A stretch of 64,000 nucleotides of DNA from a bacterium (lineage in GTDB: Bacteria; Patescibacteriota; Minisyncoccia; UBA6257; GWB1-50-10), in contig JAUSKB010000026.1 in NCBI GenBank assembly GCA_030647415.1, forward strand, positions 10,894-74,893, written 5' to 3'. The translations under genes were made by a program, and so were the position numbers. Positions 17,132 through 36,138 of the stretch are shown here, piece by piece (position 1 is the first letter of the stretch; every line of letters begins with the position of its first letter). Below the pieces are notes generated by a model. It saw only the letters and a program-made list of their open reading frames with translations. It was not told the DNA's origin and did not search any database.

Positions 17132-17461
17132 TGGTGGAGGCGGAGGGATTGAACCCTCTTCCAGGGAATTCACCGAAGGCACTCTACAAGCTTAGTTCTT
17201 GCGAACGAAGGTGCTCCGCTAGTTTAATCCCGTGAAGCGCGAAGCGGCCCCACAAGACGAGTCTCGAATATTACACCGGCTGATTCCTACGAGACATGAG
17301 AGGCCGATGCCGGCATTACGCGAATGCGAACGCCGGAACTGCAACCGTTCGGTTGGCAGATATAGTGTTTGACCGGTTGTATCCGCCAGAGGCGGACGGG
17401 CGAGACGATCAGCTCGGCCTGCAACCCTCAATGGATGTTCCTTGTCGATGCGTGCGCCCCC
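17132..17461 (-). ncRNA. ssrA: tmRNA (SsrA), ~330 nt. Predicted tag peptide ANRTVAVPAFAFA-stop.
   Basis: 5' GGGGGCG pairs with 3' CGCCUCC-ACCA including G3:U70. 3' end GGAAGAGGGUUCAAUCCCUCCGCCUCCACCA resembles E. coli GGACGCGGGUUCAACUCCCGCCAGCUCCACCA. The mRNA-like region reads GCC AAC CGA ACG GUU GCA GUU CCG GCG UUC GCA UUC GCG UAA, with resume codon ~nt 105. smpB lies immediately upstream. Confidence 0.8.
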
Positions 17462-23894: not shown

Positions 23895-24068
23895 GATCCC
23901 TCCTCTTTTTTTGAATTCAAACGTTTGCTGGATAAATTATAGCAATATAAAAACTAGATGTCAATATCTCGTGCGCAAATTCAAATATACGATATTATTG
24001 ACTTATTTATTAATAAGTTTTATTATATAATCAGTTTTTTATTCACACCACATATACAGGAGGAAGGC

Positions 24069-25055
24069 ATGACTATGAGCAAACTCTTCGCCAAAACCTA
24101 TGGCTTTGACGACGGACACAAGCAAAAAGAGCCGGCACAGGTCTGGTTCACGCACTCTATTGATGGGCTGGTACTTTTTGTCGTGTTCTACACACAGGCG
24201 TGCCGATGGGGCAAATGTGCGGGATGCAATCTCCCCTCGCTCTCATCGAGTCACCACATAGGATACCTGGATATCATGAAGCAGGTTGATACGCTCTTCA
24301 GCCGCACCGACGTTCGAAAACATCGAAAAGATATCCGCCAGGTGGTACTCTCCAACAACGGCTCGGTGTTCGACCAGGAAATATTCTCGACTACGGCGCT
24401 CATGTACTTCATGGCCGTCGTGAACCGCGAGCTCCCCAACCTGGCAGTGCTTACCATCGAAACCCAGCCGGACTACGTGGATATGGAGGAATTGGAAATC
24501 CTCGCTCGGGCAATCCACGAAGGCACCACCCCGACCACGCTTGAGGTCGCCATCGGCTTCGAGGCATACGACGACCGAATCCGCAACAAGGTCTTTCTGA
24601 AGGGGCTCTCGCTCCGAGAGGTTGAAAATCTCGCGGAAAAGCTCGCAAAACACGGGTTCCGCCTGAAATGCTACTTCATGCAGAAACCTGTTCCTGATAT
24701 GACCGATGAGGAGGCGGTGCGCGATATTCAGGATGGCATCGACTACCTGCACAAGCTTGCGACTAGATTCGGGATCGCGGTGACGATGCACCTCAACCCG
24801 ACATACGCCGCACGAGGCACCATACTTGAGACCGCACTCAAAAATGGAATCTACGCCCCGCCGAGGCTCGCTGATGTTGCACGCGCCGCACGGTATGCCC
24901 AGGGGAAACGTGTTGCAGTGCACTTCGGTCTGAACGATGAGGGGCTCGCCACGGAAGGTGGCTCCTTCATCCGCCCCGGTGAGGAGGAGTTCCTCAAAAT
25001 GTTGGAGAGGTTCAATGAGACACAGGACTTTTCTCTCATTGAAGAAAAGGGGTAG
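24069..25055 (+). CDS. Radical SAM superfamily protein (TIGR01212/YhcC- or Elp3-like).
   Basis: Cys cluster ACRWGKCAGCN. Glycine-rich VVLSNNGSVFD. LTIETQPDYVD and LEVAIGFEAYDDRIRNKV resemble the Elp3/YhcC IETRPD and VQS..D motifs. RBS aggagg. Confidence 0.5.
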   Translation: MTMSKLFAKTYGFDDGHKQKEPAQVWFTHSIDGLVLFVVFYTQACRWGKCAGCNLPSLSSSHHIGYLDIMKQVDTLFSRTDVRKHRKDIRQVVLSNNGSVFDQEIFSTTALMYFMAVVNRELPNLAVLTIETQPDYVDMEELEILARAIHEGTTPTTLEVAIGFEAYDDRIRNKVFLKGLSLREVENLAEKLAKHGFRLKCYFMQKPVPDMTDEEAVRDIQDGIDYLHKLATRFGIAVTMHLNPTYAARGTILETALKNGIYAPPRLADVARAARYAQGKRVAVHFGLNDEGLATEGGSFIRPGEEEFLKMLERFNETQDFSLIEEKG

Positions 25056-25064
25056 AAGTACAGA

Positions 25065-25096
25065 AACCCGCTCGATATGAGCGGGTTTGCTTTTTC
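25065..25096 (+). terminator. Rho-independent terminator aaacccgctc-gatat-gagcgggttt followed by a T-run.
   Basis: Read directly. Confidence 0.7.
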
Positions 25097-25216: not shown

Positions 25217-26887
25217 ATGAAACACGCTGCGATGCTTTTCGCGGTGGTGGCGATCCTTATGTGCATTTTTGCACAGGGATTTGCTCAGAAGATTGAAACC
25301 ATCCAGGCAAGACCGCTGGTCGACGTTGTAACGGACCAGCTCCGTTCGGTGTCTGACCAAGACGCCATCCCTGTCATCACGTGGGGTGGTGACGTCGCCA
25401 CGCAGTACGCTTTGGAGAAGGGGCTTATCTCGGGACGTCTGTTCCTGGAAAACAACTTCGTGAAGCAGGTGCGTATGTGCGTGCAAGGGAAGACCCCGTA
25501 CATTCGCGGTACCGCAGGCATGGTAAATGCGGCGGCAGAGGCGCTTGAGGCAAAGGGGATCACCCTCGTGCCTATATACAAACTCACCTGGTCAACGGGT
25601 GGCGATGTCTTGGTGGTTCGAAACACCATCAAGAAGCTCTCCGACCTGCGCGGAAAGAAGATTGCTCTGCAATTGTATGGTCCACACATGGACCTCATTG
25701 CAAACATACTTTTGAACGCAAAGGTGAGTCCTAACGAGGTCACATTCGTCTGGTTCGAGGAGCTCACCCTACCAGGGGCGGGCTACCAAGGGCCGATTCG
25801 GAACCCCGTTGAAGCATTCCAGCATGACCAGACGATTGACGCGGTGCTCTGCATCGATATTGACGCTGCATCGCTTACAGCGAGTGAAGGTGGGGTCCCC
25901 GGCGCACGGAAAGCCTTCTCGACTGCGACCGCCTCTCGGATCATATCCGACTGGTACGCGGTGAGGAGTGACTACCTCGAAGCAAATCGGACGACCGTCG
26001 AGAAATTTGTCGGTGGTCTCATGAAGGGTCAGGAAGGATTCAGTGACCTCCAGAAAAACTGGAAGTCGCAGAAGGACGAGTGGAATTCAATCCTCCAAAA
26101 GTCCGCAAACCTCCTACTCGGCTCCGCAAATCTCGGAAGTGATGTAGCAGGCATGCTCCAGGGCTGCACGTTCGTTGATTACAACGGCAACATGCAGTTC
26201 TTCACCGGGAAAGGCGGTACAAGAAACATGGAGACGCTCACAAAAGAGATTCAGTCTTCCTTCGTAAAGATGGGCATCATGCGATCGCGTGTGAACCTCA
26301 CTGATGCGAACTGGAACTATGCCGCACTCGCGGCGGGACTCCGGTACGCAAAGAGCGTACCCGCGGAACCAACGGAAGCCTACAACCCCAAAAAGGTTGA
26401 GGCGTTCGTGGCGAAAAGAATCGAAGGCGAGTCGGGCTCATTCGCGGAGAGTGCAATGCTCCCCTCGTTCGAAATCCTCTTCAAGCCAAACCAGACCGAG
26501 TTCTCAACCGATGAGTACTCGGATAACTTCCGCGAAGCGCAGGGAGCTATCGATGCGTTCGGTGGCGCCATCGTCGTCGTTGAAGGTCATTCTGACCCAA
26601 CGAAGGTCGCAAAGATGCGCGTTGCGAATGACCCAACAGTGGCGCTCGTCGAACAGGCGGCAAAAAACACCTCACTCGAGCGGGCAAATGAAGTTCGAAA
26701 AAGTTTCATCGCATTCTGCAAGAAGCGCGGTACACCCATTGATGCCTCAAAGGTTACAGTGGCGGGTGTTGGAGTGAAGCACCCCAAGTACCCGAAACCG
26801 GCAACGGAGGAGCAGTGGAAGCAGAACTTCCGTGTCGTCTTCCGCATGGTTTCACTCGAGGGCGAATCAACTTCATTTGAAAAGTGA
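25217..26887 (+). CDS. Secreted NMT1/SsuA-like substrate-binding protein fused to a C-terminal OmpA-like peptidoglycan-binding domain.
   Basis: Signal peptide. Periplasmic-binding-protein-like body. C-terminal VVEGHSDPTKVAK...SLERANEVRKSF...GVGVKHP matches the OmpA_C pattern (GHTD...LS.RRA..V). Promoter TTGACA-17-TATAAG at 25105-25133. RBS aaaggagg. Confidence 0.6.
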   Translation: MKHAAMLFAVVAILMCIFAQGFAQKIETIQARPLVDVVTDQLRSVSDQDAIPVITWGGDVATQYALEKGLISGRLFLENNFVKQVRMCVQGKTPYIRGTAGMVNAAAEALEAKGITLVPIYKLTWSTGGDVLVVRNTIKKLSDLRGKKIALQLYGPHMDLIANILLNAKVSPNEVTFVWFEELTLPGAGYQGPIRNPVEAFQHDQTIDAVLCIDIDAASLTASEGGVPGARKAFSTATASRIISDWYAVRSDYLEANRTTVEKFVGGLMKGQEGFSDLQKNWKSQKDEWNSILQKSANLLLGSANLGSDVAGMLQGCTFVDYNGNMQFFTGKGGTRNMETLTKEIQSSFVKMGIMRSRVNLTDANWNYAALAAGLRYAKSVPAEPTEAYNPKKVEAFVAKRIEGESGSFAESAMLPSFEILFKPNQTEFSTDEYSDNFREAQGAIDAFGGAIVVVEGHSDPTKVAKMRVANDPTVALVEQAAKNTSLERANEVRKSFIAFCKKRGTPIDASKVTVAGVGVKHPKYPKPATEEQWKQNFRVVFRMVSLEGESTSFEK

Positions 26888-26898
26888 GGGGGCAACCC

Positions 26899-27651
26899 AT
26901 GAAATCATACTGGATTATTACCCTCGTCCTCCTGTTCGGGCTCGGTAGCTGCGTACAAAAGCAGTCCTCGGGGTCAGGTACGGTTGAGAAGGTTGAGGAA
27001 AAGGCGGAGGTCGCTGCAGAAAACGGTGGCATTCCGCTCGATGAGAACCTTCCTGGGGCCGCAATCAGCCTCCAGAAAAACTTCTATGTGATTCTGGACT
27101 GCTCCGGCTCCATGGCTGAAGACGTGTGCGGTGGTGGCGATAAGTCATTCTATGACAAGATGCGCGCCGCACAATGGGCAACCACGGAGTTCGTGGCGAA
27201 GGTCCCCAAGGACGTTAATCTCGGGCTCTGCCTACTCACCGACGGCGACGTCGTGGAGGTGGTGCCGCTTTCGACTGATCGTGCGGCATTCCTCGCTGCC
27301 GTCCAAGCAACGGGGAGTGGTGGCGGTACCCCACTCGGTGAAGCAATCGTCGTTGCGACGAATAAGCTTGCCGAGCGCTACAAGCTCCAGCTCGGGTACG
27401 GCGAGTACCGAATCATCGCGATCACCGACGGCGAAGCGACCGGCATGTCGATTGATCGGGCCGGCGAGTATGCTCGAAAATCCGGCTTCCCGATTTACAC
27501 GATCGGTTTCTGTATGGACGCCGATCATTCGCTCCGGAAATACTCAACGAGCTACCGAACCGCGAACTCCTCCATAGACCTTGCAAAAGGCCTCGAGGAG
27601 ACCCTCGGCGAGGCAGACTCGTTCGACCCCACCACATTCGGTGGGAAATAG
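26899..27651 (+). CDS. Lipoprotein with a von Willebrand factor A (VWA) domain.
   Basis: Lipobox LGSC. MIDAS-like DCSGSM ... TPLG ... ITDGE. Confidence 0.7.
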   Translation: MKSYWIITLVLLFGLGSCVQKQSSGSGTVEKVEEKAEVAAENGGIPLDENLPGAAISLQKNFYVILDCSGSMAEDVCGGGDKSFYDKMRAAQWATTEFVAKVPKDVNLGLCLLTDGDVVEVVPLSTDRAAFLAAVQATGSGGGTPLGEAIVVATNKLAERYKLQLGYGEYRIIAITDGEATGMSIDRAGEYARKSGFPIYTIGFCMDADHSLRKYSTSYRTANSSIDLAKGLEETLGEADSFDPTTFGGK

Positions 27652-27819
27652 AAGTAGTAAGCAGTAAAGAAACAGGCCCCCGGCACCATGCTGGGGGTTT
27701 TTGCTTTCTGATCTTTCTAGGCATGCCTTAAAAGGCAAACGAAATTGACAAAATCACCACTTTCTGCTAGTGTACTCCCAGTATATTCATAACAGAAAAA
27801 CAACCTAAAGGAGTAAGAA

Positions 27820-29385
27820 ATGAAGCAGAAAGCACTAGGGATAGCGCTCTTCATCGTGCTCGTTGGAGGGCTTGTGGTTGGAGTCCTGTGGGTGCTCAAA
27901 CCCACGTTCTTCAAAAACAAACTCACAAAAACGAGCGACGCATCCAACGTATCGGAAACGATACGCATGGGCGGCGACGACTACTACGGGTACTTCTTCC
28001 TGACAGCTCAGGAGACCCGCAGTCAGCTCGCCGCACAGGGGATGCAGGTGAACTACGTGGATGATGGCGGAAACTACGCCGATCGTCTCAAGAAGTTCGC
28101 CGATGATGAGTACGACGCAATTGTGCTCCCCGTAAAGGAGTACCTCCAGCATGGGAAAGCACACGGGTACCCGGGTGTCATTACCATGGGTATTGCAGAA
28201 TCACGGGGTGCAGATGGTCTCACAGTTCTCACCAACCGCGTGCCGTCGGCAACCGTGAAAGCGCTGAATAACCCAAACCTGAAATTCGTCTACACGGACG
28301 CGAGTCCGTCCGAGTTTCTCGTCGACTTCACGGTTGCGGACTTCGGCCTCAACCAACTCCGCGCGAGTTCACACTGGCGGGTGCCGGTGGGTTCCTGCAA
28401 AGAGGTGTTCGAGCGGCTGAAGCGGGGCGAGGGAGACGTGTTCGTCCTCTGGGAACCATACCTGTCCGAAGCCCTGCGTCTGCCGAATGTGCAGTACGTG
28501 TGGGGGTCAGACAAGGCTGCCGGATACATTATCGATGTCGTCGTTTTTCGACGCGACTATGTCGACAAGAAACATGAGCAGGTCCTCAACTTCCTCAAGG
28601 CGTACTTCCGCTCGCTCGACACCTACGAGAGCGACCAGGGACGCCTCATCCAAGAGGTCGAGGAGAACCTGTCGAGCCGCGGGTTCGACAAGAGTATCGC
28701 GCCATCGATCGTCAAAAAAATCGATTGGTTCGATCTCCGCGAGAACCTCGAGCAGCAGTTCGCGATTCCCGCGACACCTGGAGCACCGGCGCGCGACGGC
28801 ATCGTGAACACGATCATCGCATGCAGGAACGCCATGATACGCATGGGGCGCATCCAGAGCGATCCGCTCCCCGAAGGAAACCCGCTGTTTATTATAAACA
28901 GCAGCTTTCTGAAGGAACTGGCATCAACCGGTGTCGCACCTGTCAGCGTGGGAGGATCTCAGATAACTGAATTTCTCCCGCTCACCGATGGGCAGTGGAA
29001 ACAGCTCCAGGAAGTCGGTTCGCTCCGATTGGAGCAAATTACCTTCCAGCGAGGGACAAACTACCTCGACGACTTCGGTAAAACCAAGGTCGACGAGCTG
29101 GCCCAGCTCCTCGCAAACAACTATCCAGGGTACCGAATCCTCGTCCGAGGCCACACGGCTCCGGGCGACGATGAATCTGACAATCTCCGGCTCTCTACAG
29201 AGCGAGCGGAGGTGGTGAAACAGCGGCTCATCGCGGTGCACGCCATTAACGAAAACCGCGTGTATGCGAGCGGCGTAGGGAGCAGCATGCCCCCACCGTC
29301 AGATCCGACTATTCCACCGAGGGAACGAATGATGCGGCTCGCACGAGTCGAGTTCGTCCTCCTCGAAAAAGATTTTCCACTCTAA
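27820..29385 (+). CDS. Membrane-anchored SsuA/NMT1-like binding protein with a C-terminal OmpA-like domain, paralogous in architecture to 25217..26887.
   Basis: N-terminal TM helix. C-terminal ILVRGHTAPGDDESDNLRLSTERAEVVKQRL...RVYASGVG matches OmpA_C. Confidence 0.55.
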   Translation: MKQKALGIALFIVLVGGLVVGVLWVLKPTFFKNKLTKTSDASNVSETIRMGGDDYYGYFFLTAQETRSQLAAQGMQVNYVDDGGNYADRLKKFADDEYDAIVLPVKEYLQHGKAHGYPGVITMGIAESRGADGLTVLTNRVPSATVKALNNPNLKFVYTDASPSEFLVDFTVADFGLNQLRASSHWRVPVGSCKEVFERLKRGEGDVFVLWEPYLSEALRLPNVQYVWGSDKAAGYIIDVVVFRRDYVDKKHEQVLNFLKAYFRSLDTYESDQGRLIQEVEENLSSRGFDKSIAPSIVKKIDWFDLRENLEQQFAIPATPGAPARDGIVNTIIACRNAMIRMGRIQSDPLPEGNPLFIINSSFLKELASTGVAPVSVGGSQITEFLPLTDGQWKQLQEVGSLRLEQITFQRGTNYLDDFGKTKVDELAQLLANNYPGYRILVRGHTAPGDDESDNLRLSTERAEVVKQRLIAVHAINENRVYASGVGSSMPPPSDPTIPPRERMMRLARVEFVLLEKDFPL

Positions 29386-29406
29386 CTAACAAAAAGGAGG
29401 CAGTAC

Positions 29407-30366
29407 ATGAATTCCAAGCGGGGACGCGACGCCCCCTCAGGGAACGTCGCAGCTCCAACACCGGAGGACTTCAAAGGGTCCTCGGTGCAGAGACACGTGC
29501 TGGCCCAAGCGAGCAAGGAGCCACTCACCGTGATTCCCCTCGCTATTGGAACGGTCTGCGTGCTTGCGGGGGTCGTGCTCGTTGCACCAGCAGCTCTCAT
29601 CGCGGGACTTCTTAGTGGAGGGGTGAGTGCCGGATCATTCATCTGGCACTACTTCATCAAAGGAGAGCGTGTCGCCGAAGAGTATGTGCAGGAGCTCCGA
29701 ACACGTCGCGACGAGGCGCAGCGTCAATCAATCCGTGACTTCGCACGAGAGTGCGAGAATGCAGGTTTTGACGAAGGCGCAAAGGAAGCGGGTGAGCTTA
29801 AAGAAGCCTACTACCGTCTCCGCGATTTCCTAATCGGAGATAGCGTGGAAGGGAAAAGTACCGAGAGTGGGCAGTACTACTTTCTGCTCGCGGAGAATAC
29901 CTTCCAACATGGCATCGAACTGCTCCGCCAAGCGATGAACACATTCCGTGCGCTCCAAAAAATGGATACCCATTCGCTTGAGGAAGAGCGTGACACGTGG
30001 GTTGCAGAGCTTGCTAAACTTGAGAAATCAAAGCAGAAAAAAGAGAGTGAACTCACCAACCTGCGGACGAAGATTGAGAGTCACCAAAAGCGGCTCGAGG
30101 TCTTTTCACAGCAGGAAGAGTACATTCAAGAGCTCATGGCACGGTGTGAGGTCTGTGAATCAGCCCTCGATACCTCATATATGCAACTCACCCGACTCAT
30201 CACGAGCACTGGCAAGGTTTCGCTCGCTGAAAAAACTGACGCACTCACCGAACTTGAACGAGCGGTGCAAGCCGCAAAAAAAGTCGAGGAGAAGCTTCGA
30301 TCAACAAGCGGTGCCATGACCAGAGAAGAGGAGGCTGTCTACGAACGGGCAGGACAGAAAAATTAA
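29407..30366 (+). CDS. Membrane-anchored coiled-coil protein (319 aa).
   Basis: RBS aaaaggagg. One TM region, then a long heptad-rich, charged segment. Confidence 0.5.
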   Translation: MNSKRGRDAPSGNVAAPTPEDFKGSSVQRHVLAQASKEPLTVIPLAIGTVCVLAGVVLVAPAALIAGLLSGGVSAGSFIWHYFIKGERVAEEYVQELRTRRDEAQRQSIRDFARECENAGFDEGAKEAGELKEAYYRLRDFLIGDSVEGKSTESGQYYFLLAENTFQHGIELLRQAMNTFRALQKMDTHSLEEERDTWVAELAKLEKSKQKKESELTNLRTKIESHQKRLEVFSQQEEYIQELMARCEVCESALDTSYMQLTRLITSTGKVSLAEKTDALTELERAVQAAKKVEEKLRSTSGAMTREEEAVYERAGQKN

Positions 30367-30394
30367 ACAATCACACTAACAGAAAGGAATAGTA

Positions 30395-31216
30395 ATGGAA
30401 GAGGGAAATATTGGATTCTTTGCGGCACTGTGGAGATTTTTCACGCTCTACAAGCTGCGAAAAACATTGGGGCTCGTGAGGGCTGCCGATCGGCAATTCT
30501 CAGGTTCCGTGGAAGGCATCAGTGACGCATTCGACATCACACACGACGACATGGTAACCCGCTATAAGGGGTTCCGTGACGCTGTGTCGCAGGTCGAGGC
30601 GATTGCCGAACAGAAACGCGCACGGTTTGAAGACCTCAACACCGAAGAAACGGACCTGATCAGGAAACGCGACGGCGCAATTGCGCTAGCAGAGAAGGCA
30701 AAAACCGCAAACGACACCGCAGCATATGACAAGCACGCGAAGGCGTACGAGGCGTTCCAGCTCCGCATTGATGAGATTGAGACAGAACAGGCACAACTCG
30801 AAACCGAGCTCAAGGAACTTGGTGGAACGATGGATAAATATCTCATGCAGCTCTCTGAGATGCAGCGGGAGATACAGCGATTACCGAAACAGAAGGCCGA
30901 GGAGATCGCGAAGTTCATCACCTCCAAGCAGATCATTAGCTTAAACGATCGTTTGCAAAACCTGCAGACGTCGCTTGAGCGTGGACCAATCGATGTTGTA
31001 CTGAAGGCAAATCGGGAATTGAGCGCCAAGGCGCGTATTTCCGAGAAACTCTCTGGGGCAGACGTGAAGCTCCAGGACGCGCAATACGACAAAGAGGGAA
31101 AAACCGCGGCGGCGCGAGGAAAGCTCGATGCAATACTTGCCGCTCGAGCAGCGGAAAAAGACGCAAAGTCCGGTACCAAAAAACCGGAGGAGCGTCCGGA
31201 TCTCGTAAGGCAGTAA
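30395..31216 (+). CDS. Coiled-coil protein, possibly PspA/IM30 family.
   Basis: N-terminal amphipathic GFFAALWRFFTLYKL, then ~220 aa of coiled-coil-like sequence with PspA-like length and composition. The assignment is tentative. Confidence 0.35.
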   Translation: MEEGNIGFFAALWRFFTLYKLRKTLGLVRAADRQFSGSVEGISDAFDITHDDMVTRYKGFRDAVSQVEAIAEQKRARFEDLNTEETDLIRKRDGAIALAEKAKTANDTAAYDKHAKAYEAFQLRIDEIETEQAQLETELKELGGTMDKYLMQLSEMQREIQRLPKQKAEEIAKFITSKQIISLNDRLQNLQTSLERGPIDVVLKANRELSAKARISEKLSGADVKLQDAQYDKEGKTAAARGKLDAILAARAAEKDAKSGTKKPEERPDLVRQ

Positions 31217-31288
31217 CAGTAGTAACACCTGGTGGGCGGAGAAACACTCCCCCACCAGATTCATTTTTCACTTTTAAGGGAGGTTGTA

Positions 31289-32383
31289 ATGAAACGAACA
31301 CTGTCTGTTCTCTGTATCCTCTTTGCGCTCTGTATTGCTGCGTTGCAGCCGGCAAGCGCGAAGGGCGAGAAGAAGAAAACATTCGTCGTGAAGTGGTCAA
31401 TCTACGTGGGATGGATGCCGTGGCCGTACGCGGAGTACAGCGGCATTTTGAAGAAGCACGCTGCAAAGCACGGGATTACCATTCAACTCGAGCAGGCGTC
31501 GTACATCGCCACACTCAATGAATTCACCGCACGAAAGGCGGACGCGGTCGTCGCAACGAACATGGATATCTTGAACATGTCTGCGGCAGCCGGCATCCCC
31601 TGCGTCGCCATGATTGTGGGGGACTACTCCAACGACAACGACCAGGTACTTGGGCGAGGAGTCTCGAACATGCAGGGACTTGCGGGACAAGACGTCCTGA
31701 TGGTTCAGGGAACGGTATCGCAGTACCTTGTTGCTCGTGGGCTCGAGATGAACGGTATGCGAGAGGACCAGATCGTCATTCAAAATACGAATGACGAGAA
31801 CCAGATTCCCAACATATTCCGGGACAACGCGTCTTTGAAGGCCCTCGTCACCTGGAACCCGATGGTGCTTGAAATCCGGCAGATGCCGGGTGTGAAGAAG
31901 CTCTTCGGGTCCGCGCAGATTCCAGGGGAAATCCTTGACCTCATGATTGTGAACAAGGATGTTCTGGACGCAAACCCCGCACTCGGGAAGGCACTCACGG
32001 GCGCATGGTACGAAACCATGGCGCTCATGCAGAAACGAGGAAAAGCATCGGACGACGCCATCATCTACATGGCGGACAAATCGGGCAATCCGAAGGCGTC
32101 TGATGAAACGAAGCTCACCGAATTCCGGTCGCAGCTCGCGACCACCGCGATGTTCTACAACGCTGCGGACGCGGTGGAATTTACCTTGAACTCGAACTTC
32201 AAGGTCGCCATGGACCGGGTGCGAAAATTCAGCTTCAAAAATGGTTTGTTCGGAGAGGGAGTGAAGTCAGTTGATGACGTGGGAATTCAGTTCCCCGACG
32301 GATCTATTTTGGGGAATCCCAAGCGGATTCGTCTGTGGTTCGACACCACGTACATGAAGCTTGCCGCAGAGGGCAAGCTGTAG
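31289..32383 (+). CDS. ABC transporter substrate-binding protein, NitT/TauT (SsuA/NMT1) family.
   Basis: Signal peptide (MKRTLSVLCILFALCIAALQPASA). RBS gggagg. It is the first gene of the SBP-permease-ATPase operon. Confidence 0.7.
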   Translation: MKRTLSVLCILFALCIAALQPASAKGEKKKTFVVKWSIYVGWMPWPYAEYSGILKKHAAKHGITIQLEQASYIATLNEFTARKADAVVATNMDILNMSAAAGIPCVAMIVGDYSNDNDQVLGRGVSNMQGLAGQDVLMVQGTVSQYLVARGLEMNGMREDQIVIQNTNDENQIPNIFRDNASLKALVTWNPMVLEIRQMPGVKKLFGSAQIPGEILDLMIVNKDVLDANPALGKALTGAWYETMALMQKRGKASDDAIIYMADKSGNPKASDETKLTEFRSQLATTAMFYNAADAVEFTLNSNFKVAMDRVRKFSFKNGLFGEGVKSVDDVGIQFPDGSILGNPKRIRLWFDTTYMKLAAEGKL

Positions 32384-32507
32384 GAAGAGTGGGTAGGGTA
32401 GTCATCATCTGAATCGGGGGTTGACAAACCCCCGATTTTTATTTACAATGGAGCCAGCGATATTTACAGTTTAATACTTCAATCACAACACAGAAAGGAA
32501 TTGTCAG

Positions 32508-33395
32508 TTGCAAACAATACTCAAATCTCGTGTGGCGCACTTCGTGCAGCTACTCACAAGCTTCACTTGTAATGTCGCAACCTACCTCTCCCGAATCTTC
32601 GGGATGGACGGGAAAACGACCAGGACGTGGAAGTTGGTGCTATCATGGCTCCCCATCATTCTTCTTGCGGGGTGGTATACAACAACAGCATACCATCGCA
32701 CCGAGGAGAATCCTGATGAGAAGCTCACACCGACGCCAACAAAAGTTTACGAGGCCTTTCAGCGGTATGCGCTCGAGCCAGATAAGGCAGGCGACTACCG
32801 GCTTTGGAAGGATGTTCGAGCGAGTGGCGAACGCTTTCTTTGGGCGCTTCCCTGGCTCTTCCTTGCCGCGCTCGTGGGGCTCCATATGGGGCTCTATCAA
32901 TGGGTGGAGGACCTCTCTTTGAGGAGTCTTACGGTGGTGGATAAAATACCGCCGATCCTGCTCCTCGCACTCATCTTCGTAGTGCTCGGTACGGGCGATA
33001 TAGCAAAAGTGGCAATCATTGTGATTACCGTCTTCCCGACTATTGCGCTCGACACGCAGCTTATCACGAAGAGCTTCCCAAAAGAACTTAGGATAAAGGC
33101 AAAAACGCTTGGGGCGAGCAATGCGGAGATCACCTATCTAGTGGTCTTCAAAAATATCTTTCCCCGGGTGCTCCACGTCTTCCGATCAAGCTTGAAGGCG
33201 ATCTTTCTGGCGCTTCTTGCCGCAGAGGCAGTGGTCTCCGCGGTCGGCATTGGGTACCGGACCTTCTACGTCCAGCGATTCAGTGCTGTGGACGTAATTC
33301 TGGTGTACGTTATCACCGCGACGCTCGCACTTGTCACTATCGATCTTAGTATTCGGTGGTACGTGCGGCTACGCTACAAATGGCTCGACAAATAG
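32508..33395 (+). CDS. ABC transporter permease (NitT/TauT family).
   Basis: Multiple TM helices. TTG start with RBS gaaagga. Followed by the ATPase gene. Confidence 0.7.
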   Translation: MQTILKSRVAHFVQLLTSFTCNVATYLSRIFGMDGKTTRTWKLVLSWLPIILLAGWYTTTAYHRTEENPDEKLTPTPTKVYEAFQRYALEPDKAGDYRLWKDVRASGERFLWALPWLFLAALVGLHMGLYQWVEDLSLRSLTVVDKIPPILLLALIFVVLGTGDIAKVAIIVITVFPTIALDTQLITKSFPKELRIKAKTLGASNAEITYLVVFKNIFPRVLHVFRSSLKAIFLALLAAEAVVSAVGIGYRTFYVQRFSAVDVILVYVITATLALVTIDLSIRWYVRLRYKWLDK

Positions 33396-33410
33396 GAAAG
33401 GAGATAAAGA

Positions 33411-34370
33411 ATGAGCTTCATTGAGCTTACAGACGTCCATCAGGCCTATGGACACAAGCGAGTCCTGAATGACATCGACCTCCGAATCAGGGAGGGGGAA
33501 TTCACAACCATTGTGGGTCCCACCGGCTGCGGGAAATCAACCATGCTCCGACTCATACTCGGAAGTGAGCAGCCAGTTCGTGGCAGTGTCACTATCGAAG
33601 GAACACCGGTCACGGGAATCCATCGTGACCGAGGGATAGTCTTCCAACAGTACGGTTTATTTCCGAACCTGACCGTGCTCGAAAACATCATGTTCGGCCC
33701 TGTCCACGAGCGGCACTCGTTCGTGGGCGGCATCATCGGCAGGGCAATCATAAAGCTCCGCCGAGGAGCTGAGTGTTGGCTCGGAAAACGCGTCGGGAAC
33801 CTTCTCCCGAAGGGACCGCTCTATGCCATTGAGGAGCAGGCCTTGGAGTACCTGAACCGCATCGGCCTCAGCGAGGCTGACGCGGGGAAGTACCCCTTCG
33901 AACTCTCAGGTGGCATGAGGCAACGCGTCGCAATCGCGTCGGCGGCCATCATGAAGCCGAAAGTCTTTCTGATGGACGAACCGTTCGGTGCGCTCGACGC
34001 GGTGACGCGCCAGAAGATGCAGCAGTTCATTTTGGAACTTCACCAGAAGTACCAAATGACCATCTTCTTCGTTACCCACGAACTCCGCGAAGCATTGTTT
34101 CTCGGTACGCGCGTCATCGCGCTCTCGCAGTACTACAAAACGGATAATGGAGGTGAGCCGGGTACGCAGGGGTCCAAGATAATCTCTGATTTTCCACTGC
34201 AAAGAACATCAACACTGGATGAGAAGTACTCTCCGGAGTTGAATGCAATTGAAAAACAGCTTATGGAAGATCTCGACGGATCAAAGAAGAAATACATTGG
34301 TGACTTTCACCTCACCCATCCTGACTCGTTCCGAACAGTGGATGCGGCGGAGTGGAGGAGGACCTCATGA
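33411..34370 (+). CDS. ABC transporter ATP-binding protein.
   Basis: Walker A GPTGCGKST. Signature LSGGMRQRVAIA. Walker B FLMDEPFGALD. Confidence 0.85.
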   Translation: MSFIELTDVHQAYGHKRVLNDIDLRIREGEFTTIVGPTGCGKSTMLRLILGSEQPVRGSVTIEGTPVTGIHRDRGIVFQQYGLFPNLTVLENIMFGPVHERHSFVGGIIGRAIIKLRRGAECWLGKRVGNLLPKGPLYAIEEQALEYLNRIGLSEADAGKYPFELSGGMRQRVAIASAAIMKPKVFLMDEPFGALDAVTRQKMQQFILELHQKYQMTIFFVTHELREALFLGTRVIALSQYYKTDNGGEPGTQGSKIISDFPLQRTSTLDEKYSPELNAIEKQLMEDLDGSKKKYIGDFHLTHPDSFRTVDAAEWRRTS

Positions 34371-36100
34371 ACGCACCTCGGTTTATTGAACAGCTCCACG
34401 AGGCGTACCGGTTCCGGGGAAAGGGCATCGTGCTCTTCACCGGCAATGTGAATGATCTCTTCTGGAGCCCCAATAGTGGTCGCTACCTTTCGCTGGAGCA
34501 AGTACTTCAAAATGAGCTCCAGGAGACTATGACCATCCTGCGGTACGACATAGGCACCGGGGTGGAATTCGTAGGAAACGGCGCGGAAGAGTATGTCGAG
34601 GCGACATACTCATACGCGAACGTGCTCTCTGAAAAAAAGACGAAAACACCAATAGCGGATCTGGTGGTAGATGTCCGCCATAGCCCGCTCCCCAATCTGG
34701 TACTCCTCAAGGACCTCATGCACGCCTTTCGGCGGGCACGAATCATGGAGGAAACCCGAGAAAAGAAGGATAGGCGCGGACATGGAGAAAAACCTCTCTG
34801 CCTCGTTGTTCAGCATACGGGAATGCTGTTTCCTGAAGGAGACGGCTCACGCCTAAGTGACGCGGACCGGGAACGGCTGGCGTTCTTCCTCTCATGGGTG
34901 AATGACCCCGCGTTCGCATCAAGCTCCGAGCTTATCATCCTGGTAAGCTCGGTACGCGCCGAAGTGAATACGAAGGTGACCGCCCTGCCGCATGCGGCGC
35001 ACATCGAGATACAGCTCCCTAACTCCGACGAACGGACGCACTTCACGGAACGATTCCTTGAAAACAACACGGTGTCGTTCGAAAAGTCGAAGGAGCTGTT
35101 CATCGAGAGTGCTGCGGGACTCACCATCACAACGATGCATGAGCTGCTGCGATTCTCCGCATCAAACAAAGGCGAAATCACCAGAGGGCAAGTGGTCGAT
35201 GAGGTAAATCGCCTGCTCCAGGCGAAATTGGGCGACATCATTCGGATCAAGTATCCGACGCATCGGTCAACCGATATCGTCGGGTATGCGAGAACGAAGG
35301 AACTCTTGCAGTATACATTCGAGCGGTGCGAGGATCCGGAAACTGCGGTTTCTGCGGTGCTCGTAGCGGGATCGAACGGAGTCGGCAAGACCTTTCACCT
35401 TGAGGCGTTCGCCGCGGAATCCGGGAGGGTTGTCATCGAACTCGGCAACATCCGTGGGTCGTACTTCAGTGAAACAGATCGGTTCTTCGAGATGTTTCGC
35501 TGGTACGTCTCAACGCTCGGACGCATCTTAATCCTCGTAGATGAGGCGCATACCGCTTTCGGCAGCGTGCACGGGAACGACACCCACGAAACGGAGAAGC
35601 GGCTCGCAGGGAACGTCATCAAGATGATGGGCGACCCATCCCTTTTAGGGAAGGTTGTCTGGGGTCTCATGACCTCACGACCCGACGAGCTCGACCCAGA
35701 CGTGAAGAGCCGAGCGCCGATTCAGATTCCCATCTTTGATTTGGAAGATGCGGAGCGGAAAAGCTACATCCGGGAAATCTTCCTGAAGAAGAAGATGGAA
35801 CTCACGGACGAGGAGCTTGAGACGGTCTTCGCGAAGACGCTCTACTACTCAAACCGCGACTTTCGAAACTTCGTCGCGGAAGTGCTGGCGGAGCGAAAAC
35901 GTCAACAAAAGGAAATACCTATTGTTGACGTGCTTGGCCGATGGCAAGCAAGTCGATCCATTATGTCGAAGCGACACTTCCAGGAGCTCATTGCTGCACT
36001 TCACTGCAGCTACATCGAACTCCTTCCGAAGCGACTGACCGAGATGAAAGAAGGCGAGATCGAGCGCCAGGTAGAAATACTGAAGCACTCGATACTCTAA
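34367..36100 (+). CDS. AAA+ family ATPase with a ~300-aa N-terminal domain of unknown function, translationally coupled to the ABC ATPase (ATGA overlap).
   Basis: Walker A VLVAGSNGVGKT. Walker B ILILVDEAH. RBS ggaggagga. Confidence 0.65.
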   Translation: MNAPRFIEQLHEAYRFRGKGIVLFTGNVNDLFWSPNSGRYLSLEQVLQNELQETMTILRYDIGTGVEFVGNGAEEYVEATYSYANVLSEKKTKTPIADLVVDVRHSPLPNLVLLKDLMHAFRRARIMEETREKKDRRGHGEKPLCLVVQHTGMLFPEGDGSRLSDADRERLAFFLSWVNDPAFASSSELIILVSSVRAEVNTKVTALPHAAHIEIQLPNSDERTHFTERFLENNTVSFEKSKELFIESAAGLTITTMHELLRFSASNKGEITRGQVVDEVNRLLQAKLGDIIRIKYPTHRSTDIVGYARTKELLQYTFERCEDPETAVSAVLVAGSNGVGKTFHLEAFAAESGRVVIELGNIRGSYFSETDRFFEMFRWYVSTLGRILILVDEAHTAFGSVHGNDTHETEKRLAGNVIKMMGDPSLLGKVVWGLMTSRPDELDPDVKSRAPIQIPIFDLEDAERKSYIREIFLKKKMELTDEELETVFAKTLYYSNRDFRNFVAEVLAERKRQQKEIPIVDVLGRWQASRSIMSKRHFQELIAALHCSYIELLPKRLTEMKEGEIERQVEILKHSIL

Positions 36101-36109
36101 TCAATAGGA

Positions 36110-36138
36110 CGCCCCCGACCACATGTCGGGGCGTTTTT
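36110..36138. terminator. Bidirectional terminator cgcccccgac-cacat-gtcggggcg followed by TTTTT.
   Basis: Sits between the convergent gene ends 36100 and 36150. Confidence 0.7.

Follow-up and report, generated by a model that had tools for sequence, protein, structure and literature searches.

A 64,000-nucleotide stretch of a contig assigned to the Patescibacteriota (GenBank assembly GCA_030647415.1, contig JAUSKB010000026.1, positions 10,894 to 74,893; hereafter, the window) carries nine co-directional open reading frames (ORFs) on the + strand, g1 to g9, which fill positions 25217..36100 in the ORF listing. On the evidence of sequence comparison and of gene order across genomes, these nine genes are one functional envelope-associated module. 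It combines g5, a predicted cytoplasmic protein remotely homologous to PspA and Vipp1, with g9, a probably tandem AAA+ protein that bears the signature of a substrate-threading unfoldase, and with a membrane-anchored helical protein, an ABC importer and three further envelope proteins, two of which carry OmpA-like domains. We give about an even chance to the reading that the nine genes encode one envelope-spanning machine for membrane maintenance or remodelling. The evidence for this reading comes from domain identities, predicted topology, the remote PspA homology, the conservation of pore-loop and active-site residues, and the conservation of gene order. The nine genes are as follows.

25217..26887, + strand: g1, exported NMT1/SsuA-type substrate-binding protein (SBP) fold with a divergent C-terminal OmpA-like domain (Pfam, family profile)
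26899..27651, + strand: g2, VWA-domain lipoprotein with an intact MIDAS (VWA_2, 44 bits, and VWA, 39.5 bits, both above cutoffs)
27820..29385, + strand: g3, SBP-like body with an N-terminal transmembrane (TM) anchor and a canonical OmpA-like domain (OmpA, 52.2 bits)
29407..30366, + strand: g4, membrane-anchored helical protein with no Pfam model (hydrophobic stretch 38-76; all-helical AlphaFold2 (AF2) model)
30395..31216, + strand: g5, predicted cytoplasmic, remote PspA/IM30 (ESCRT-III superfamily) homologue (family profile, hhalign, AF2 model)
31289..32383, + strand: g6, free periplasmic SBP of the TIGR03427 family (397.9 bits against a cutoff of 333.9; signal peptide)
32508..33395, + strand: g7, ABC permease, TauC/SsuC-like (BPD_transp_1, 55 bits; TauC, E 4e-20)
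33411..34370, + strand: g8, ABC ATPase (ABC_tran, 113 bits; TauB/NrtCD/SsuB-type matches)
34367..36100, + strand: g9, AAA+ protein, probably tandem (PF00004 at residues 336-460)

The start codons of g2, g6 and g9 were set from gene calls on an identical public contig (Logan SRR13727527). The start of g2 was moved to 26899 (ORF from 26884) and that of g6 to 31289 (ORF from 31232). The ORF of g9 opens at 34352, and its start was placed at the ATG at 34367, which forms an ATGA overlap with the stop codon of g8. The coupling of the ABC ATPase and AAA+ genes through ATGA, as proposed in an earlier reading made from the letters alone (the sequence-only reading), is thereby confirmed. All nine genes listed in that reading are present, and nearly every domain that it assigned was recovered in our domain scans, which used Pfam and NCBIfam.

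The conservation of the module was followed through its AAA+ protein, which has hundreds of full-length homologues at ~50% identity. A scan of one genome per species for these homologues yielded 52 loci, each with up to 10 kb of flank, onto which the window proteins were placed by tblastn; 35 of the loci are informative, having 8.6 kb or more upstream. In 26 of these 35 loci the full set of nine genes is colinear on a single strand; when only distinct loci are counted, this holds for 25 of 34 (L019 and L021 are identical). Eight genes are found in two further loci, where g1 falls outside the available flank, and one more locus has the complete set, in which g1-g6 are inverted. The hosts carry the labels Acidobacteriota, Aminicenantes, Holophagae, Poribacteria, Nitrospinota, Obscuribacterales/Melainabacteria and KSB1, among others, together with an Oculatellaceae cyanobacterium and metagenome-assembled genomes (MAGs) labelled Victivallales and Myxococcales/Myxococcota, so that the module is spread over at least eight phylum-level lineages. 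Two of the hosts are cultured, Sulfidibacter corallicola M133 (complete genome) and Acanthopleuribacter pedis KCTC 12899. Such conserved synteny rules out a fortuitous arrangement, and the sequence-only reading, which had suggested one functional module from the layout of the genes, is borne out on this point. Locus mapping also indicates that the window's neighbours (TrkA-like, radical-SAM, HD and Nramp genes) are not kept beside the module elsewhere; the limits of the module are therefore set at 25217..36100.

The loci that have lost parts of the module are informative. In L014 the three transporter genes are gone, g1-g5 and g9 are retained, and g5 adjoins g9. L029 retains g5-g9 without g1-g4, and L004 retains g4-g9 without g1-g3. 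Thus g5 and g9 persist together in all three loci despite the loss of other parts. The other stable adjacency is that of g8 and g9, which is found in nearly all loci, including the remnants L025 and L017.

It should be mentioned that the two identical loci, L019 (scaffold 6) and L021 (scaffold 2), both come from A. pedis KCTC 12899. They are 21.7-kb module loci with 100% identity, which reflects either a very recent large duplication or assembly redundancy. In five other loci (L008, L010, L011, L012 and L050) the AAA+ gene stands apart from the module (at ~10001-11680 in L012 and L050), with a DEAD/DUF3516 helicase gene adjacent and with TIR-domain and STAND-WD40 genes close by. These orphan loci were considered as a second conserved context for the AAA+ protein and rejected as such, since all of them belong to one closely related acidobacterial lineage and represent one relocation event.

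The g5 protein has 273 residues and no hydrophobic segment. When its family profile was searched against 5.8 billion proteins, it recovered its own family and then only two PspA/IM30 proteins, with E values of 6.6e-5 and 1.9e-4. The identity of one of the two was verified by a full-length PF04012 match of 65 bits, well above the gathering threshold (GA) of 33.9. Aligned by hhalign, the g5 family scores 96% and 95% against the two PspA/IM30 proteins, over 197 columns with an E value of 3.7e-9. Decoys, 40 shuffled and 2 reversed, reach at most 1.7%, and the match to PspA is therefore not due to coiled-coil composition. The AF2 model of g5, with a predicted local distance difference test (pLDDT) score of 78, consists of four long helices (residues 8-36, 39-104, 108-194 and 199-258); the reference PspA fold comprises an N-terminal helix α0, a long α1-α2/3 hairpin, α4 and α5. 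In a Foldseek search of the Protein Data Bank (PDB) with this model, the top match and seven of the first 13 matches are Vipp1 chains, aligned nearly end to end, with TM-scores of 0.24-0.43 when normalised by the query and 0.30-0.52 when normalised by the target. Taken together, the profile and model comparisons place g5 as a remote homologue within the ESCRT-III superfamily, on its PspA/Vipp1 side, and not as a family-level member. The sequence-only reading had described g5 as a coiled-coil protein with a PspA/IM30-like N-terminus; the PspA likeness stands, and it covers most of the length of the protein, not the N-terminus alone. The N-terminal helix was also considered as a classic amphipathic helix. 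This proposal was dropped, as the hydrophobic moment is low (0.03-0.26) and the helix is instead aromatic/basic and hydrophobic.

The AAA+ protein g9 is the second carrier of the argument. Its C-terminal domain has a PF00004 match of 46 bits, and the family profile matches only classical-clade AAA proteins in the PDB: the best listed is Afg2/Drg1 (E 1.3e-11), and the others include fidgetin-like 1 (FIGL1), VAT, Msp1, spastin, Rpt4 and Vps4. In 15 family members, the Walker A (GxxGxGKT) and Walker B (VDEAH) motifs of this domain are invariant, as are the TSRP of the sensor-1 region and the K-S-R of the arginine-finger region. The pore-loop-1 segment R-G-S-Y-F-G-E-T-D is strongly conserved, with only the R and the T invariant, and it fits the classical K-[YWF]-x-G-E pattern. 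By these features the C-terminal domain is a classical-clade AAA domain, not of the MoxR type, with the signature of an unfoldase that threads its substrate. No hydrophobic segment or membrane anchor is found in g9, which is thus predicted to be cytoplasmic.

The N-terminal 300 residues of g9 had been regarded in the sequence-only reading as a novel domain. They have no match in Pfam (15 N-domains scanned), and hhalign of this region against the C-terminal domain of g9 itself was also blank. A weak match to the archaeal Vps4 lid subdomain (E 0.008-0.044) covers residues ~199-291, and the consensus shows AAA motifs in canonical order from which the catalytic residues have been lost, namely LLTGDxxGLF at Walker A and CVxxQF at Walker B, together with the lid motifs HIEIxLPxxxER and TAGLTLxxLxDLL. 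Ravi et al. (mSystems 2024, PMC11237479) gave the corresponding AAA+ protein the annotation 'inactive classical AAA + classical AAA'. Because of the lid match, the ordered motifs and the agreement with this annotation, the N-terminal half is likely a degenerate AAA domain and not a novel fold.

The g4 protein, encoded immediately upstream of g5, has 319 residues and a hydrophobic hairpin at ~38-84 with basic residues on either side. From this hairpin topology, its C-terminal helical domain should be cytoplasmic. The family is large, with 570 cluster representatives at E<=1e-3, and the AF2 model is all-helical with a pLDDT of 67. At this moderate confidence, Foldseek returned weak BAR-like matches only. 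Two g4 alignments were compared by hhalign with the g5 family and with PspA; scores do not exceed 27% and are limited to a 41-column C-terminal motif. The label 'TM + divergent Snf7' given to such proteins by Ravi et al. was not reproduced for g4 by hhalign, Pfam, PDB profile search or Foldseek, although a distant homology may have escaped a model of moderate confidence. For both g4 and g5, Pfam, NCBIfam and PADLOC scans and profile searches against the PDB gave coiled-coil noise only. It is noted that a search of hidden Markov models (HMMs) against single sequences is too weak for proteins of this type.

The C-terminal motif, of ~30 residues, is common to g4 (~278-319) and g5 (~205-238) and occurs at a fixed position. 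Its consensus in g4 is AVxAARRVExRLRG...DxxYxxA, and in the two proteins together A-x-A-[AK]-R-[VI]-[ES]-x-[RK]-L-[RA]-G ... D-x-x-Y-x-x-A-G. The g5 segment aligns with the C-terminal region of PspA (~174-224 of the 233-residue P0222). The alignment of the g4 and g5 motifs by hhalign has an E value of 6.6e-4, and with an HMM of the g4 C-terminus 14 real g5 proteins, all matched at a constant position, outrank the first decoy. This evidence is weak; the similarity could reflect a shared recognition element, for example for the AAA+ protein, or a very distant common ancestry.

The two PspA/IM30 genes that link g5 to PspA each precede a gene of ~250 codons (L054 2809-3552 and L055 1337-2092). The product encoded 3' of each ordinary PspA gene starts with a short segment, followed by a hydrophobic hairpin and then a helical domain, an architecture like that of g4; significant sequence similarity was not detected. 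Kinship between g4 and the TM-hairpin protein of L054 2809-3552 was examined and rejected, as the real sequences score no better than shuffles.

Export signals are predicted on g1, g2, g3 and g6, and sequence-based topology gives no hydrophobic segment for g5, g8 or g9. The g1 protein begins with a hydrophobic stretch at residues 1-26, predicted to be a signal peptide of the cleavable type. Its NMT1 match (25.1 bits) is above the Pfam cutoff and its OmpA match (22 bits) is below the cutoff of 27.2. At the family level the assignment is supported: the g1 profile matches Omp38 (E 1.3e-3) and a taurine SBP, and its OmpA-like domain aligns with that of g3, with an insertion present and with the motifs EGHSDP and NLSLxRAxAVR conserved. 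The g1 gene is found in 27 loci. The g3 protein has a predicted TM segment at residues 1-31 that would anchor it in the inner membrane. Its OmpA-like domain scores well above the PF00691 GA of 27.2, and the family profile matches OmpA-like domains in the PDB with an E value of 1.9e-15. The N-terminal body of g3 has weak SBP matches (TIGR03427, E 5.7e-6, residues 85-267; SsuA, E 3.9e-4). Of the OmpA-like motif GH(T/S)D ... LSxxRA, the divergent g1 domain retains the form GHSD...LSxxRA, and peptidoglycan binding is predicted for the domains of both g1 and g3.

Pairwise comparison of g1 with g3 detects no similarity (BLASTP E 0.44). When the two families are compared, homology extends along the whole of both proteins (hhalign 97.2%, E 2.9e-11, 425 columns). 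These comparisons indicate that g1 and g3 are ancient, not recent, paralogues, which keeps the paralogy claimed in the sequence-only reading and moves it far back in time. In addition, the g6 query has weak tblastn matches (E 2e-7) within the g3 gene of L002 and L015. From the homology of g1 and g3 and these g6 matches, we conclude that the module contains three SBPs that are ancient paralogues, and that two of the three are fusions with an OmpA-like domain.

Between g1 and g3 lies the VWA lipoprotein g2, which was matched by PF00092 and PF13519. It has the lipobox LGSC and retains the DxSxS motif of the MIDAS in 30 of 30 family members, and it is predicted to be exported and to face the periplasm. 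The VWA and OmpA assignments of the sequence-only reading thus hold, that of g1 with family-level support. Its suggestion of a MoxR-type VWA and AAA+ pairing does not: g9 is a cytoplasmic AAA+ protein of the classical clade and g2 a lipoprotein facing the periplasm. With an exported VWA protein and a cytoplasmic AAA+ protein, the logic of MoxR-VWA systems is inapplicable to this module.

By their domain matches, g6-g8 are an ABC importer of the NitT/TauT type, as the sequence-only reading had it (TIGR03427, BPD_transp_1 and ABC_tran). The title of TIGR03427 is 'putative urea ABC transporter substrate-binding protein'. The context behind this title, linkage to urea carboxylase or allophanate hydrolase genes, was not found among the immediate flanking genes, the rest of the 64-kb window being unscanned for it. 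The ABC ATPase g8 has an insertion at ~113-135, between the Q-loop region and the signature motif. It was considered as a docking site and rejected, being lineage-specific and absent from most family members.

A possible arrangement of the module as one machine can be outlined from these features. A g5 polymer would assemble on the cytoplasmic face of the inner membrane, where g4, encoded beside it, probably nucleates or anchors it. With a probably dead N-terminal AAA domain and a live AAA domain bearing an aromatic pore loop, g9 may be the dedicated unfoldase that recycles the g5 polymer and perhaps that of g4, acting on g5 in a manner analogous to that of Vps4 on ESCRT-III. The importer g6-g8 would work with the SBP-like proteins g1 and g3, which are presumably fastened to peptidoglycan, and the MIDAS-containing lipoprotein g2 would probably bridge partners in a metal-dependent manner. 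In the periplasm, g1, g3 and g2 could position the system or provide ligand sensing. The tight translational coupling of g8 and g9 suggests that transporter activity or ligand occupancy may be tied to polymer turnover. In this proposal, we infer that g9 acts on g5 or g4, that the products form a single physical complex and that a ligand has a role.

Several points weigh against this proposal. The support for every member is computational. A direct match to the Pfam PspA_IM30 model is absent for g5 and for 33 of its relatives, and the Foldseek matches to Vipp1 are weak (E 8e-3 to 5e-2), helical hairpins of this kind matching much else. No ESCRT-III, Snf7 or PspA similarity is found for g4 by hhalign, by Pfam scans of 45 members or by profile search of the PDB. 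The assignment of the g9 N-terminal domain depends on a marginal lid match and on inspection of motifs. Moreover, scans of g9 with Pfam and NCBIfam showed neither an MIT domain nor another module known to bind ESCRT-III, and g9 is not Vps4 proper, which combines an N-terminal MIT domain, binding the MIM motifs of ESCRT-III, with a single AAA domain. It is with the ABC ATPase gene, not with g5, that the AAA+ gene is coupled, and the transporter could be the client of the AAA+ protein. As for a ligand, TIGR03427 owes the 'urea' of its name to a guess from context, and urea carboxylase is absent among the immediate neighbours.

Other explanations were considered alongside the membrane-remodelling machine. 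The locus could be primarily a nutrient ABC importer for a small nitrogen- or sulfur-containing solute (urea-, amide-, sulfonate- or taurine-like), in which peptidoglycan-anchored auxiliary SBPs concentrate or pass on the ligand and g5 and g9 service the surrounding membrane. The score of g6 above the curated TIGR03427 cutoff agrees with this, as do the SBP-like paralogues g1 and g3 with the g6-query matches in g3, the standard type-I importer parts g7 and g8, and the hairpin located 3' of the SBP gene (32411-32438), a placement typical of transporter operons. We nevertheless consider it unlikely: five of the nine genes are non-transporter genes and are conserved equally strictly, no solute-catabolic genes are linked to the module, and L014 lacks the transporter yet keeps g1-g5 and g9. 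The same locus bears on the proposal that the AAA+ protein extracts, unfolds or assembles the transporter or an envelope complex in the manner of Msp1 or FtsH, with the PspA-like g5 as a bystander stress protein. The ATGA overlap of g8 and g9, their adjacency in almost all loci including L025 and L017, and the presence of Msp1/ATAD1 among the PDB matches would fit such a role. In L014, however, the adjacency of g5 and g9 survives where the ABC genes are missing; g9 has no membrane anchor; and one acidobacterial lineage has g9 alone with no transporter gene nearby. Such a role for g9 seems to us quite improbable.

The sequence-only reading had also noted that VWA, AAA+ and coiled-coil scaffold proteins recur in defence systems, and an anti-phage defence or conflict system was considered for this reason. 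The orphan AAA+ gene of one acidobacterial lineage does lie beside TIR-domain and STAND-WD40 genes, but this TIR context is limited to closely related genomes. The PADLOC scan for defence systems gave noise-level matches only (coiled-coil LmuB and JetC; MotB/ZorB-OmpA; generic ABC) and no specific match, and nuclease, protease and other effector domains are absent. The membrane is predicted to separate the VWA protein from the AAA+ protein, the genes keep a rigid order from phylum to phylum, and the module is flanked elsewhere by housekeeping-like genes. A defence function is thus very improbable, and that suggestion of the earlier reading is abandoned.

Of the systems already described, the closest is that of Ravi et al. 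(2024), who reported by comparative genomics operons with PspA, TM-'Snf7', inactive-AAA/AAA, ABC and PBPB-OmpA genes, exemplified by OGG56892.1 of Candidatus Handelsmanbacteria, and who drew the same functional inference, ATP-dependent membrane remodelling linked to solute transport. The likeness extends to the PspA-like protein, the membrane-anchored helical protein, the AAA+ protein with a probably dead N-terminal AAA domain, the ABC ATPase and permease, and the SBP-OmpA fusion. Unlike the module in the window, their example has another gene order and one SBP-OmpA protein, and no VWA lipoprotein or separate free SBP is listed for it; the form in the window has nine genes, two SBP-OmpA proteins and an order that is fixed in many phyla. 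The association of PspA with an AAA+ protein is therefore not new in itself, having already been noted from genomics by Ravi et al. The nine-gene form with the VWA lipoprotein is undescribed and apparently the dominant variant of this computationally predicted system.

PspA and Vipp1 were assigned to the ESCRT-III superfamily in 2021. The module resembles ESCRT-III/Vps4 systems (CdvB/CdvC) in that a protein of this superfamily is encoded with a classical-clade AAA ATPase bearing a pore loop. It differs in that g9 has an extra, probably dead AAA domain in place of the MIT domain, in that g5 lies on the PspA/Vipp1 and not the Snf7 side, and in that the OmpA-like and VWA parts have no ESCRT counterpart. 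ESCRT systems with Vps4 were found to be confined to archaea and eukaryotes by Makarova et al. (2024), who also noted that some archaeal ESCRT loci carry PspA-like genes and an SBP gene (ProX). According to a 2025 review, a Vps4-like ATPase 'appears absent in bacteria'. It is possible, though on balance doubtful, that many bacterial phyla hold a functional analogue of ESCRT-III/Vps4, in which a PspA-type polymer has its own AAA+ motor and is set in an importer-containing, peptidoglycan-anchored complex. If so, the sensing of a ligand in the periplasm would trigger or position membrane remodelling or repair, and the current textbook-level view that bacteria lack Vps4-like regulation of ESCRT-III polymers would be contradicted. 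The question of a bacterial ESCRT-III/AAA+ pair is directly testable in the cultured S. corallicola and A. pedis. The module also connects membrane remodelling with an ABC importer and with binding proteins tethered to peptidoglycan, a link that has yet to be explained.

Other known systems share fewer parts with the module. The Psp and Lia systems (E. coli PspFABC, B. subtilis LiaIH) likewise combine a PspA-family effector with a small membrane anchor (PspB/C, LiaI), and that of E. coli includes an AAA+ partner. This partner, PspF, is a transcriptional AAA+ protein of the NtrC type and not a classical-clade unfoldase; the module has no PspB, PspC, LiaI or Toastrack, and Psp and Lia have no ABC importer, OmpA or VWA parts. 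In the FtsZl1-vWA-OmpA operons, for which membrane remodelling was predicted by Makarova and Koonin (2010, PMC2875224), the gene of a cytoplasmic polymer former is likewise accompanied by genes for an exported vWA protein whose MIDAS is intact and for OmpA-like proteins that bind peptidoglycan. Their polymer former is a relative of tubulin and FtsZ with a GTPase, in contrast to the PspA-like protein and AAA+ pair of the module, and they have no ABC importer. MoxR-VWA pairs and Bat operons also have VWA and AAA+ proteins. In the module, the AAA+ protein has a classical PF00004 domain (not AAA_3 or AAA_5) and is predicted to be cytoplasmic, and the VWA protein is exported.

The DNA around and within the module contains hairpins and a promoter-like site, all on the + strand.

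25064..25088, + strand: terminator-like hairpin, 11-bp stem followed by a T-run, 3' of the radical-SAM gene; 5' boundary of the module
27674..27700, + strand: strong hairpin and T-run between g2 and g3, 12-bp stem with 7 G-C pairs; putative internal attenuator or terminator
32411..32438, + strand: strong hairpin and T-run 3' of the g6 SBP gene, 12-bp stem, overlapping the promoter-like site
32421-32449, + strand: promoter-like site, near-consensus and sigma-70-like, TTGACA-17-TACAAT (11/12 matches)
36113..36131, + strand: terminator-like hairpin, 7-bp stem with 6 G-C pairs, then a T-run; 3' boundary of the module

The internal hairpins, with the promoter-like site, suggest either that the module is divided into sub-operons (g1-g2, g3-g6 and g7-g9) or that the SBP is differentially expressed. 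The immediate upstream neighbours are a TrkA-like gene and the radical-SAM gene; HD, Nramp, IF3 and L20 genes follow immediately downstream on the opposite strand. The radical-SAM gene (23958-25055, +), which adjoins the module, is RaSEA-like (archaeosine biosynthesis; TIGR01210, E 3.3e-31, below the cutoff). One distant MAG (L044 4488-5492, -) has a homologue with 43% identity directly 3' of its AAA+ gene; it is shared with no other locus, and the link is probably due to chance. The sole Rfam matches in the window are a tmRNA at 17132-17461 (-), with 70 bits, and a tRNA at 52345-52416 (-), both unrelated to the module.

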